In this document: positions 42,444 through 45,844 of the stretch, one piece after another
How positions within the stretch are numbered: the first letter of the stretch is position 1
Layout of the letters: each line of letters begins with the position of its first letter
DNA from: an uncultured Acidobacteriota bacterium
Lineage (GTDB): Bacteria; Acidobacteriota; UBA6911; RPQK01; JAPXNP01
Direction: 5' to 3'
NCBI GenBank assembly: GCA_964524795.1
Contig: CAZGEH010000016.1
Location: 6,889-70,888, forward strand
Length of the DNA stretch: 64,000 nt
Position numbers and translations under genes: made by a program
Notes under the pieces: model-generated
The model's database searches: none
Seen by the model: the letters and a program-made list of their open reading frames with translations, nothing else
Told to the model about the DNA's origin: nothing

Positions 42444-42971
42444 ATGGGACTGCTGGACTTCCTCGGCCTCTCCAGGAGGTCGGAGCCTGCAGCCGACGGT
42501 GACGCGGAGAGCATCCGCCGCATTGCCCGCCGCCTCGACGAGATGGATCCCCGCCAGGCCCGCTACCTGGCCGCCTTCGCCTACCTGCTGGGCCGGGTCG
42601 CCAACGCGGACTCCGCCATCAGCGAGCTGGAGTCCTCCCGCATGGAGGAGCTGGTGGAGGAAAAGGGACATCTTACCCGCGAACAGGCGGTGATGACGGT
42701 GGAGATGGCGAAGCGACAGAACCGGCTGTTCGGCCACGTGGAAAACTTTCTGGTGACCCGCGAATTCAACGAACTGTCCAGCCGTGAGCAGCGGCTGGAA
42801 CTCCTGGACTGCCTGTTTTCGGTCTGCGCGGCCGACCGCAGCATCACCGCTGTGGAGGATCGCGAGATCCGGCAGATCGCCAGTGAGCTGCTGCTGGATC
42901 ACCGGGATTTCATCGACGTGCGTTCCCGATACCGGGAGCACCTGGAGGTGCTGCGCAAGCTCGACGAGTGA
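42444..42971 (+). CDS. TerB-family protein
   Basis: LLGRVANADSAISELE...LLDCLFSVCAADRSIT..E...IRQIA..L. Confidence 0.8.
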   Translation: MGLLDFLGLSRRSEPAADGDAESIRRIARRLDEMDPRQARYLAAFAYLLGRVANADSAISELESSRMEELVEEKGHLTREQAVMTVEMAKRQNRLFGHVENFLVTREFNELSSREQRLELLDCLFSVCAADRSITAVEDREIRQIASELLLDHRDFIDVRSRYREHLEVLRKLDE

Positions 42972-42978
42972 GGGACTT

Positions 42979-43131
42979 TTAATTTCGAGGCGGCCTTTCG
43001 GAAGGCTGATCCGGGTGCGGAACCTCGCACCTTGGACTCACTCAGGTGGGAACTCCCAGCCGGGGCAACACCCATGCCTGCAGGATCAGCCAGCCGGCTA
43101 CAAACAGAATGATCAGCAGTGCATCCCACAT
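42979..43131 (-). CDS. Candidate 50-aa single-pass membrane selenoprotein (Sec at TGA 43044-43042)
   Basis: MWDALLIILFVAGWLILQAWVLPRLGVPT-(TGA)-VSPRCEVPHPDQPSERPPRN-TAA; SECIS-like hairpin 10 nt after the TGA. Alternative reading is a 29-aa peptide. Confidence 0.65.
43014..43031 (-). promoter_or_regulatory. Putative bacterial SECIS element of the microprotein
   Basis: Minus strand GGTGCG-AGGTTC-CGCACC, perfect 6-bp stem with GG in the loop; possible lower stem GTCC/GGAT. Confidence 0.65.
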
Positions 43132-43227
43132 ATCGGCGCTGATGGCGGCAGCCCGGACCGCTCCGGGCCGCCGCCTGCTGATGATATCATCCCGGCAGAT
43201 TTTTCCCGACTGGAGGAGGGATTGCGT

Positions 43228-43749
43228 ATGCGGTGGCTGAACTGGACTCTTTCCGCTTTTGCTTTTCCGGCACTGGCGCTCGGCGCCGCCCCGGACAAGG
43301 GGAGCCCGGCTCCCGACTTCGAATTGCAGGGTTCCGACGGCCGGGTCCACCGGCTGAATGATTATATTGGACGCCAGCCCGTGGTACTGGCCTGGTTCCC
43401 CAAGGCTTTCACCGGCGGCTGAACCGCCGAGTGCAAGTCGCTGCGTGACAGCGGCCAGGAACTCAAAGCTTTCGATGTTGCCTACTTTGCGGTCAGCGTG
43501 GACGACGCCGACACGAACCGGCGGTTTGCCGAATCCCTCGATCTCGATTACCCCATCCTGAGCGACCCGGACAAGTCCGTGGCCAAAGCATACGGAGTCT
43601 TGCATGAATCGGGCAATTTCGCGCAGCGGTGGACGTTCTTCATCGACCGCGCGGGAGTGATCGCCCACATCGACAGGGAGGTTAAGCCCGCCACCGCCGG
43701 ACAGGATCTGGTTCAGCGGCTGGAGGAGCTGAAGTTCCCGAAACGTTGA
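43228..43749 (+). CDS. Selenocysteine-containing peroxiredoxin (AhpC/TSA, BCP-like) with signal peptide
   Basis: GSPAPDFELQG...LAWFPKAFTGG-(TGA 43420-43422)-TAECKSLRD...YPILSDP...QRWTFFID; the TGA occupies the peroxidatic Cys position and the frame continues to 43749. Confidence 0.88.
43437..43455 (+). promoter_or_regulatory. Putative bacterial SECIS element of the peroxiredoxin
   Basis: GTCGCTG-CGTGA-CAGCGGC stem-loop starting 14 nt after the TGA; possible lower stem GAGT (43429-43432)/ACTC (43461-43464). Confidence 0.6.
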
Positions 43750-43777
43750 ACCTTCTTGAACCCTCGAGGAGGTCACC

Positions 43778-45844
43778 ATGAGCACTGTGTGGATTCCGGC
43801 AGCCATGGGGTTGGTCTGTCTGGGTGCGGTCCAGGCGGCACCCACCTGGGATACCGTTCTTTACGGGGCGTCCTATTACCACGAGTACATGCCGTATGAA
43901 CGGCTCGAGGAGGACGTCCGGCTGATGGAGGAAGCGGGCTTGACGGTGGTGCGCCTGGGGGAATCCACCTGGAGCAGTTGGGAGCCCCGGGAAGGCCAGT
44001 TCGAATTTGCCTGGATGGATCGCATCATCGACCGCCTGCACCAGGCGGGGATCAAGGTCATCCTGGGCACCCCCACCTACTCCATCCCCCCCTGGCTCTA
44101 CCGAAAACACCCCGAGATCCTTGTCACCCACCTCAAAGGAGACAAGGCCTGGTACGGCCCCCGCCAGAACATGGACATCACCCATCCCACCTACCTCTTC
44201 TACGCCGAAAGGGTGATCCGCCAGGTGGTTGGGCACTACCGGAACCACCCGGCGGTCATCGGTTACCAGGTCGACAACGAGACGGGCTCCTACGGGACGG
44301 CGGGGCGCAATGTCCAGTTGAGCTTCGTCGATTGCCTCAAGCGCAAGTTCGGCAGCGTTTCCCGCCTGAACGAGATCTGGGGCTTTGTCTACTGGGGGCA
44401 GCTTGTCAACGACTGGGACGAGCTGCCTCCCCGCGACGGAATCCTCAACCCAGGCTACAAGCTGGAGTGGGAACGCCATCAGCGCCAACTGGTCACCGAC
44501 TTTCTGGCCTGGCAGGCCCGAATCGTCAACGAATACCGGCGCCCGGACCAGTTCATCACCCACAACTTCGTGGGCGGCGTCCGGACCGGCATCGACCAGC
44601 CGGCCATCGCCCGCCATCTGGATGTCGCCGCGGTCAATCCCTACCACCCGGTACAGGACGATCTGGATGGCGAATCCATCCACCTCTCGGGCGACCTTTG
44701 CCGATCACTGAAACGGCAGAACTACCTGGTGACGGAGACCAACGCCCAGACCATCGGGTGGGATTCCAGGCAACAGTTCCCTCCTTACGACGGGCAACTC
44801 CGCCTGAACGTGTATTCCCACATCGCAGCCGGCGCCAACCTGGTGGCCTACTGGCACTGGCACTCGCTGCACTACGGGCAGGAGACCTACTGGAAGGGGG
44901 TCCTCTCCCACGATCTCCAGCCCAGCCGGGCTTACCGGGAGGTTGCCCGTATCGCCCAGGAGCTGAAGCGATTCGGTCCCCGGCTGGTCAACCTGCAGCG
45001 CCGTAACGACGTGGCCATTTTGTACAGCATCGATTCCTTTCACGGAATCGAGTTCATGCCGTTCGACGACCGCGTAAACTACATGACCGTCCTCCATCAG
45101 TTGTACCGGACGTTGTACCGGCTCAACGTGGGCGTCGATTTCATCTTCCCGGACACCGAAGACCTGTCCCCCTACAAGCTGATCGTGGTGCCGCCCCTTT
45201 ACATTGCCGACGACGCTCTGCTGGAGCGGCTGGCGGCCTACGTCCGGAACGGCGGGAGGCTTGTCATGTCCTTCAAGAGCGGCTTCTGCAACGAGTTCAG
45301 CACCGTGCGCTGGACTCTGGCGCCGGGACCTTTGCGGGAAGCGGCGGGCTTCAGCTACCAGGAGTTCTCCAACCTGAAGCGGCCGCTGGCGCTGGCCGGA
45401 GATCCCTTCGGCGTGGGCGAGGGAAACCAGGTTTCGGTGTGGGCGGAGTTTCTGGTTCCCGACACTGCCGAAGTGGTGGCCCGGTACGACCATCCGTTTT
45501 TCGGCCGTTTCGCGGCCATCACCCGAAATCGCTACGGCAGCGGAACCTTCACATACCAGGGCACCTTTCTCTCGGATGAACTGCAGCGGGCGGTCCTGCT
45601 CCAGGAGCTGGAAGCTGCGGGGCTGCGCGGCCCGGACCAGGACCTGCCGCCGCGGGTAGCCGTCCGCCACGGGCGCCTGCAGGACGGATCGCCGGTACAC
45701 GTGTACCTGAACTATACGGCCCAGGAACAAACATTCCCCTACAGTGGGGGTCCAGGAACCGAGCTGCTCAGCGGGCGACCGGTGGCCGCCGCAGCAACAA
45801 TCTCGCTGGCGCCGTGGGAGGTGGCGGTCATTGTCGGGGGGTAG
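43778..45844 (+). CDS. Beta-galactosidase, GH42 family
   Basis: YGASYYHEY, RLGESTWSSWEP.EG.F, YQVDNE (acid/base), VTETNA (nucleophile), GQETYWKG. Confidence 0.88.
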   Translation: MSTVWIPAAMGLVCLGAVQAAPTWDTVLYGASYYHEYMPYERLEEDVRLMEEAGLTVVRLGESTWSSWEPREGQFEFAWMDRIIDRLHQAGIKVILGTPTYSIPPWLYRKHPEILVTHLKGDKAWYGPRQNMDITHPTYLFYAERVIRQVVGHYRNHPAVIGYQVDNETGSYGTAGRNVQLSFVDCLKRKFGSVSRLNEIWGFVYWGQLVNDWDELPPRDGILNPGYKLEWERHQRQLVTDFLAWQARIVNEYRRPDQFITHNFVGGVRTGIDQPAIARHLDVAAVNPYHPVQDDLDGESIHLSGDLCRSLKRQNYLVTETNAQTIGWDSRQQFPPYDGQLRLNVYSHIAAGANLVAYWHWHSLHYGQETYWKGVLSHDLQPSRAYREVARIAQELKRFGPRLVNLQRRNDVAILYSIDSFHGIEFMPFDDRVNYMTVLHQLYRTLYRLNVGVDFIFPDTEDLSPYKLIVVPPLYIADDALLERLAAYVRNGGRLVMSFKSGFCNEFSTVRWTLAPGPLREAAGFSYQEFSNLKRPLALAGDPFGVGEGNQVSVWAEFLVPDTAEVVARYDHPFFGRFAAITRNRYGSGTFTYQGTFLSDELQRAVLLQELEAAGLRGPDQDLPPRVAVRHGRLQDGSPVHVYLNYTAQEQTFPYSGGPGTELLSGRPVAAAATISLAPWEVAVIVGG

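Follow-up and report, generated by a model that had tools for sequence, protein, structure and literature searches.

A probable family of single-pass membrane selenoproteins of about 50 to 67 residues, identified through a gene overlooked by ORF calling in an uncultured Acidobacteriota bacterium

Here, we describe a 50-codon gene in a 64,000-nucleotide (nt) stretch of DNA from an uncultured Acidobacteriota bacterium (contig CAZGEH010000016.1, positions 6,889 to 70,888; the whole stretch is called the window below). On comparative sequence evidence, we consider it very likely that this gene encodes a genuine single-pass membrane selenoprotein. The minus-strand open reading frame (ORF) 43131..42979 reads M..LQAWVLPRLGVPT-UGA-VSPRC..-TAA, and a hairpin begins 10 nt past the UGA. 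Among the relatives of this gene, the UGA is conserved and aligned with Cys. The codons after it show conservation at the protein level, and downstream of it lies a conserved stem-loop with the geometry of a bacterial selenocysteine insertion sequence (bSECIS). The recoding mechanism is the ordinary bacterial one; the novelty lies in the protein family and in its size and membrane placement. A preliminary description of the window had proposed a transmembrane (TM) helix running into a TGA with the frame continuing to a TAA, and each of these elements was found where it had been placed. The hairpin GGUGCG-AGGUUC-CGCACC claimed ten nt past the TGA is present at 43031-43014, and the Cys claimed five residues after the putative selenocysteine (Sec) is encoded by the TGC at 43029-43027. 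The features of the gene are as follows.

42979..43131, minus strand: complete coding sequence of the putative micro-selenoprotein, with 50 residues (Sec30 among them) and the TAA stop; based on translation, selection and profile score
43129..43131, minus strand: ATG start, from the sequence; no clear Shine-Dalgarno sequence upstream in the window copy
43066..43125, minus strand: predicted TM helix, approximately residues 3-22; from the hydrophobic sequence and AlphaFold2 on a Cys homologue
43045..43083, minus strand: LQAWVLPRLGVPT, residues 17-29, the most conserved segment of the family; helix end and juxtamembrane turn
43042..43044, minus strand: in-frame TGA, putative Sec (U30); conserved as TGA and aligned with Cys (TGC/TGT) of homologues
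43027..43029, minus strand: Cys35 codon TGC, at +5 from the UGA; kept as TGC/TGT family-wide
43009..43037, minus strand: SECIS-like stem-loop; from the fold, and conserved in the related contigs L001, L008 and L009
42979..42981, minus strand: TAA at which the full-length product ends; the convergent TerB-like gene has its own stop 7 nt away

The 29 codons from the ATG up to the TGA read MWDALLIILFVAGWLILQAWVLPRLGVPT, and the open frame past the TGA reads VSPRCEVPHPDQPSERPPRN. Among 40 Sec-type sequences, L17, Q18, A19, W20, V21, L22, P23, R24 and G26 are invariant. Cys35 occupies the position of the second Cys in the C-M-S-G-x-C motif of the Cys forms and is the probable partner of Sec30 in a U-x4-C motif. 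AlphaFold2, run on a Cys homologue with a 68-sequence alignment, predicted a helix at residues 4-23 (pLDDT ~90) with the remainder unstructured, and gave nothing confident apart from this membrane helix.

The case for recoding begins with the family at the DNA level. Back-translated peptide patterns run over metagenome contigs identified 72 loci, which together with the window give 73 copies (~59 distinct sequences). All 73 have TGA at the Sec site; TAA, TAG and TGY are absent. The second stop, by contrast, varies between TGA, TAA and TAG; in most family genes it is TGA, here an ordinary stop, which means that the genetic code of these organisms is the standard one. Beyond the first TGA the frame stays open for 17-51 codons, and almost all copies have a Cys at +5, the codon of which switches between TGC and TGT. 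The family consensus is M-E-x-L-I-P-L-G-V-L-V-V-W-I-I-LQAWVLPR[LF]GV[KP]T-U-[ML]-S-G-x-C-GPSSAP-(variable)-ERRSP, and most members, the window subfamily excepted, have GGAGG 6-9 nt before the ATG. The tails of 43 distinct sequences come in 15 lengths, every one in frame, and the variable part of the tail has stops at 0/664 codons in frame 0 as opposed to 12/621 and 17/621 in the other two frames. The hairpin does not cover codons +1 to +5, where the entropies at codon positions 1, 2 and 3 are 0.71, 0.39 and 0.93, respectively, a periodicity like that of coding sequence.

The homologues supply the Cys counterpart of the UGA. A profile built from 40 Sec-type sequences matched 1114 clusters at E ≤ 1, and among 125 proteins retrieved, 113 end at the U site, eight have Cys there, two have Trp, one has Arg, and in one the motif was not found. 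The suspicion that ORF calling had missed the gene extends to its relatives, the annotation of which stops at the Sec codon in these 113 proteins. Because the genes are truncated in them, word-indexed protein databases miss the family: a single-sequence protein search with U entered as C yielded nothing but a fragment of 33 residues from a near relative, wrongly giving the impression of an orphan. The Cys forms have TGC or TGT at the site and keep the +5 Cys. A second profile, built from seven Cys forms and run against 1.84 billion representatives (clusters at 50% identity), returned 824 at E ≤ 1e-3. Of 145 representatives retrieved, at least 127 carry Cys at the site, and in 119 the second Cys follows at +5. 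The motif of the Cys forms is T-C-M-S-G-x-C, and the window gene belongs with them to one large, uncharacterized group of small membrane proteins that share T-[C/U]-M-S-G-x-C. The two checks on homologues proposed in the preliminary description therefore came out in favor of recoding: the site is TGA in 73/73 DNA copies and TGC or TGT in the others, and the downstream Cys stands at +5 in these 119 Cys-form representatives. At the level of sequence, this is the classical Sec/Cys pair of a selenoprotein. Moreover, a Cys-only profile of 106 representatives without the LQAW signature scored the window read-through peptide at 57.3 bits, compared with 38.4 bits for the 29 pre-UGA residues alone and 7.5 bits for the best of 2000 shuffles; the residues after the UGA add 19 bits.

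A few homologues carry other residues at the Sec site, namely Trp or Arg (P0003, P0005 and P0006) and, in distant representatives, Ser or Leu. Each is one nucleotide from TGA, as would be expected of mutations or read errors of TGA. The 208-residue protein P0233 joins a micro-protein (residues 6-55) to a thioredoxin domain (residues 61-139), and its later sequence looks frameshifted; either a gene fusion or read-through between neighboring genes could explain it.

Closer to the window gene, three contigs share the arrangement of TerB-like gene, micro-gene and peroxiredoxin: the Logan contig L001, which is 89% identical to the window in DNA sequence, and the metagenome contigs L008 and L009. 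All four sequences share the same TGA, Cys codon and hairpin core; the position of the stop is likewise constant, with TAG in L001, L008 and L009 where the window has TAA. Between the window and L001, all five substitutions in codons 1-29 are synonymous and codons 31-40 have one synonymous change, while codons 41-50 diverge. Between the window and L008, codons 1-29 have 10 synonymous changes and one nonsynonymous change, and codons 31-40 (VSPRCEVPHP, past the UGA) have four synonymous and no nonsynonymous changes. This pattern argues that, in the window lineage, the residues right after the UGA are under purifying selection at the protein level. A search of GTDB genomes for synteny around the TerB-like neighbor found six Acidobacteriota loci (52-65% identity), none with the micro-gene or the peroxiredoxin; these matches place the window in Acidobacteriota.

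The stem-loop downstream of the UGA has the features of a bSECIS. In the window, the core consists of stem GGUGCG, loop AGGUUC and stem CGCACC (43031-43014): 43031-43026 pairs with 43019-43014 around the loop at 43025-43020, and 43037-43034 and 43012-43009 form a lower stem. The element is the same in L001, L008 and L009 except for changes at third codon positions in the lower stem, and its flanks vary. Its predicted folding energy is −16.4 kcal/mol (z = −2.6), and two of 200 shuffles were equally stable. By itself the window hairpin is mildly unusual; together with the comparative data it is far beyond chance. The bSECIS consensus has a small apical loop 16-37 nt from the UGA, with a G, often followed by G or U, in its first two positions (PMC13188914). 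The window hairpin, in which the loop AGGUUC begins at a distance of 16 nt from the UGA and has G at position 2 followed by G and U, agrees with this consensus, as does the main-family hairpin (stem GGGCCG, loop AGUU, stem CGGCCC), which starts 15 nt past the UGA and has its loop at 21 nt. The covariation that the preliminary description had asked for is evident in the main family: across 42 distinct sequences, pairing holds in 98.4% of cells, compensatory double changes occur at four of the six pairs (e.g., GAGCCG/CGGCUC, GGACCG/CGGUCC and AAGCCG/CGGCUU), and neither any of 500 shuffles nor any slid register approaches this pairing. The remaining subfamilies have unrelated stems, but their loops share the (A)G(G/U) beginning and are located 14-23 nt from the UGA; the subfamily stems are GGUGCG/CGCACC (window), CUGCC/GGCAG, GGCGUCGG/CCGACGCC and CGCGCC-GGUC-GGCGCG. 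Under one explicit rule, a SECIS-like hairpin follows 54 of 55 Sec forms, as opposed to two of eight Cys forms. Rfam, searched with gathering and E-value thresholds, returned no SECIS or other family, all matches being far below threshold. 

One Sec subfamily, represented by L011, L031, L032 and L039, lacks the +5 Cys (T-U-AAPARRSARK...) and has the hairpin CGCGCC-GGUC-GGCGCG. Its GGUC loop resembles that of Escherichia coli fdhF.

Could the UGA be an ordinary stop that ends a 29-residue membrane peptide, with the stem-loop serving as a terminator, attenuator or mRNA stabilizer? Gene callers have annotated 113 of the 125 retrieved proteins in this way, the window hairpin lies between convergent genes, and the main-family peptide GPSSAP is explained by the RNA stem. 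Nevertheless, an ordinary stop would not account for a site that is TGA in all 73 copies and never TAA or TAG, with Cys codons in homologues. It is also at odds with a +5 Cys conserved through synonymous TGC/TGT variation, with the purely synonymous changes in codons 31-40, with 15 tail lengths all in frame without stops, and with the 19-bit gain from the post-UGA residues. As for the terminator, 42800-43400 holds no terminator-like site on either strand and the hairpin is followed by CGGAUCAGCC rather than a U-tract, so that an intrinsic terminator was rejected; a scan with terminator and promoter consensus sequences gave no match. We regard an ordinary stop as very unlikely. Even less credible is an arrangement of two cistrons, in which the 29-residue peptide ends at the UGA and a second peptide (VSPRC../MSGAC..) re-initiates at the next codon. 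That codon is ATG in 37 of the 73 copies and GTG in three, including the window, and a GGAG-like sequence lies within the upstream Gly-Val codons. In the other 33 copies, however, the codon is CTG, CTC, GTC, ATC, GCA or GCG, i.e., not ATG, GTG or TTG, and no in-frame start precedes the conserved Cys; these copies argue against re-initiation and led us to reject it. Moreover, the Cys homologues are one continuous protein with Cys at the junction.

A different question is whether, in a real selenoprotein family, the window copy might be a paralogue that is decaying or expressed poorly. This copy has no Shine-Dalgarno sequence upstream of 43131, its context is unlike that of the main family and away from the sulfide-oxidation operon described below, and its tail is short, divergent and fast-evolving. 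Against decay stands purifying selection across the four related genomes (synonymous to nonsynonymous changes of 10:1 in codons 1-29 and 4:0 in codons 31-40), together with the identical TGA, Cys codon, hairpin core and stop position and a conserved intergenic region with its palindrome (see below). We consider decay or poor expression very unlikely. Several observations nevertheless count against a functional selenoprotein as such. The absence of a recognizable Shine-Dalgarno sequence sets the window copy apart from most family members. Its UGA-loop distance of 16 nt is the lower limit of the consensus range, and between the window and L008 tail codons 41-50 evolve fast (7 nonsynonymous to 1 synonymous). 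In the main family, GPSSAP is accounted for by the hairpin and ERRSP by the Shine-Dalgarno sequence of the next gene (GAAAGGAG); because both have nucleic-acid explanations, neither is counted here as evidence for a functional tail. Finally, motifs of selA, selB and selD and a tRNA-Sec (ARAGORN) were not found in the 64-kb window or in a total of 528 kb of sequence made up of the window and related loci. Weighing all of this, we retain the reading of the gene as a membrane selenoprotein.

The surroundings of the gene bear on whether its genome decodes Sec. The relevant features are as follows.

42444-42971, strand opposite to the micro-gene: convergent TerB-like gene; PF05099, E = 7e-16
43180..43191, no strand: GATGATATCATC, a perfect palindrome of 12 bp between the divergent genes
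43228..43749, plus strand: divergent Sec-peroxiredoxin, AhpC/TSA; TGA at 43420-43422, hairpin at 43437-43455

The TerB-like gene was already noted in the preliminary description, and its stop at 42971 indeed leaves the TAA of the micro-gene 7 nt away. On the other side, 100 bp from the micro-gene, lies the Sec-peroxiredoxin gene. A PF00578 (AhpC-TSA) match spans its TGA (residues 25-147, E = 2.4e-34), and the TGA falls exactly at the peroxidatic Cys (FPKAFTGG-U, i.e., a PxxxTxxU motif). A hairpin with the loop CGUGA lies 21 nt past this TGA, and TGA and hairpin are conserved in the four related genomes. The presence of an adjacent peroxiredoxin gene with UGA at its catalytic Cys suggests that the window genome very probably decodes Sec. 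Between the two genes, the palindrome GATGATATCATC is invariant in the window, L001, L008 and L009 while the flanking bases vary, and it is a candidate operator common to both selenoprotein genes.

ORF calling splits the Sec-peroxiredoxin gene in two, and a long antisense ORF (43042-43845, minus strand, 267 residues) runs across the split gene. In L001, the gene caller annotated the antisense ORF (3-623, 206 residues) and not the peroxiredoxin.

Gene neighborhoods differ between branches of the family. According to the Pfam matches of their neighbors, most Sec forms lie in operons of ArsR, rhodanese-YgaP, persulfide-dioxygenase-like, TauE and SQR-like genes. The order in the main family is an ArsR-type regulator, the micro-gene, a rhodanese carrying a YgaP-like TM domain, an MBL-fold protein that contains two rhodanese domains, a TauE/SafE exporter and a Pyr_redox_2 flavoprotein; judged by its domain architecture, the MBL-fold protein would be persulfide-dioxygenase-like, and we read the flavoprotein as SQR-like. 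In L018, L019, L023, L028, L041, L058 and others, the second stop of the micro-gene and the start codon of rhodanese-YgaP overlap in an A/GTGA. This overlap, with an embedded Shine-Dalgarno sequence, suggests translational coupling, and expression of the downstream rhodanese-YgaP gene is possibly selenium dependent. A thioredoxin gene lies upstream of the micro-gene in L013, L032 and L084, and a DUF302 gene downstream of it in L010 and L032. Members of the Cys branch often follow a set of thioredoxin, ECF sigma factor and 83-residue zf-HC2 anti-sigma factor genes (including L085, L087-L089, L091 and L092) and often precede ArsR and CzcB/ACR_tran RND efflux genes, an arrangement that suggests a role as membrane sensors.

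Other observations concern the same loci. The coupled rhodanese-YgaP proteins of L019, L028, L041, L042, L058 and L066 have Cys-rich C-terminal tails, e.g., CCATKEVCS and SCCAR, after MPWNQ. In L031 and L039, the gene after the micro-gene encodes a Met-rich GMGGMMGRGMM stretch. L080 (10100-12700, on a 570-kb long-read contig) contains a main-family Sec gene, downstream of which the rhodanese-YgaP and flavoprotein genes are frameshifted, most likely by assembly errors; because of this frameshifted assembly, the locus was dropped as a further case of Sec use beside a main-family gene.

We suggest the following model. SelB and Sec-tRNA would bind the stem-loop on the translating mRNA, Sec would be inserted at the UGA, and translation would continue to the TAA at 42981-42979. 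The product would have a short acidic N-terminus outside, a helix at approximately residues 3-23 and a short disordered tail, with the invariant LPRxGVxT-U-x4-C segment placed at the cytoplasmic face of the membrane. This N-out, C-in topology is predicted from the positive-inside rule, because Arg and Lys follow the helix and the N-terminus is acidic. Sec30 and Cys35 could be joined in a redox-active selenenylsulfide, or they could together bind soft metals or sulfane sulfur; thioredoxin may keep the two residues reduced, and the pair would deal with thiol-reactive species found at the surface of the membrane. It may accept or relay sulfane sulfur in the main Sec branch and sense thiol-reactive stress in the Cys branch. 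For the window subfamily, the Sec-peroxiredoxin, with which the micro-gene shares the divergent promoter region, would be the likely partner. In our best reading of the neighborhoods, their common theme would be thiol-reactive chemistry at the membrane. A reservation about these roles is that function is read from gene neighborhood only and that the branches point in different directions, i.e., to sulfide oxidation, to ECF sigma/zf-HC2/RND efflux and to peroxiredoxin. More speculatively, and with a good deal less confidence than we have in the selenoprotein itself, these strands might be joined into one picture. The protein would be a dedicated component of sulfide and sulfane-sulfur metabolism that acts as a membrane Sec/Cys relay with the YgaP-type rhodanese and the SQR-like enzyme. 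UGA and ATGA overlap would tie translation of rhodanese-YgaP, and perhaps of the later operon, to selenium, and the Cys relatives next to zf-HC2 genes would be sensors of an ECF-sigma stress pathway.

If the gene is what we suggest, it adds a family to the 119 compiled in 2026, with an architecture that is missing there (~50-67 residues, one helix, Sec at the interface). It would also reveal a systematic annotation error, in that more than 1000 database entries would be 28-58-residue "hypothetical proteins" that stop at the Sec codon. Selenium would be linked to heterotrophic sulfide oxidation, through SQR-like, persulfide-dioxygenase-like and rhodanese proteins, and to thioredoxin, and the protein would be a candidate for a missing membrane-surface acceptor of sulfane sulfur. 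The Sec forms further define a much larger uncharacterized Cys family with the motif T-C-M-S-G-x-C, often located by ECF sigma/anti-sigma pairs and RND efflux genes. Lastly, the compact natural modules of UGA plus SECIS, ~45 nt in length, could serve recoding studies.

The preliminary description could not assign the protein to a known selenoprotein family, and our comparisons with Pfam, NCBIfam and the 2026 inventory bear this out. In Pfam, searched with cutoffs of E ≤ 1 to 10, the Sec forms have no match at family threshold (best DUF6684, E = 0.2), and for the small Cys forms Pfam and NCBIfam gave nothing better than E = 0.04. A search of NCBIfam release 20 with hmmscan gave no match for six Sec-type members (U as Cys) or for nine of 10 Cys homologues; the tenth matched only thioredoxin-type models, through a fused thioredoxin domain. 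Among the 119 prokaryotic selenoprotein families inventoried in 2026, none combines a single helix with U-x4-C (PMC13188914). Literature searches found no description of the family, the unvalidated candidates of recent screens (e.g., a groundwater metagenome-assembled genome study) being beyond their reach. Like TsoA (LULAxC, NF045695), KCU-star/DUF466 and the dual-CXXC small protein (NF041197), the micro-protein is short, usually truncated in databases and has a short Sec motif; it differs from the entries of the inventory table by the spacing U+5 = C and by the membrane helix (PMC13188914).

With Sec-peroxiredoxin (PxxxTxxU), Sec-thioredoxin (UxxC) and FdhF, the micro-protein shares an in-frame UGA that is aligned with Cys and a stem-loop directly downstream with G(G/U) in a small apical loop at 16-23 nt from the UGA, and, as in bacterial redox selenoproteins, there is a nearby Cys with which a selenenylsulfide could form. 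However, in contrast to these three it has no thioredoxin fold or globular domain, consisting of 50-67 residues with one helix. Its motif is U-x4-C at the membrane interface instead of UxxC or CxxU, and, unlike in bacterial redox selenoproteins, its close Cys forms are greatly outnumbered by Sec forms. The YgaP-type rhodanese (PF11127) of the same operon is also a membrane protein with a conserved Cys just past a helix, and its G-[IV]-T-D-T-C-G-M-G superficially resembles G-V-K-T-U-M-S-G of the micro-protein; the two probably share a membrane face. Nevertheless, the YgaP TM domain has two helices, and the micro-protein has one helix and no rhodanese domain. Homology to the YgaP TM domain was rejected, as hhalign gave a probability of 3.6% with helix residues alone aligned and there was no Pfam match.

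The eukaryotic selenoproteins SELENOK and SELENOS are single-pass proteins of the endoplasmic reticulum membrane with Sec at the extreme C-terminus and the SECIS in the 3' untranslated region. They resemble the micro-protein in being small, with a short N-terminus, one TM helix, a disordered cytosolic tail and a Sec that stands alone or with a nearby Cys. In the micro-protein, by contrast, Sec is juxtamembrane and the SECIS lies within the coding region. Because one Pfam search at E ≤ 10 matched no family, we view SELENOK and SELENOS as its nearest architectural analogues, by analogy and not by membership.

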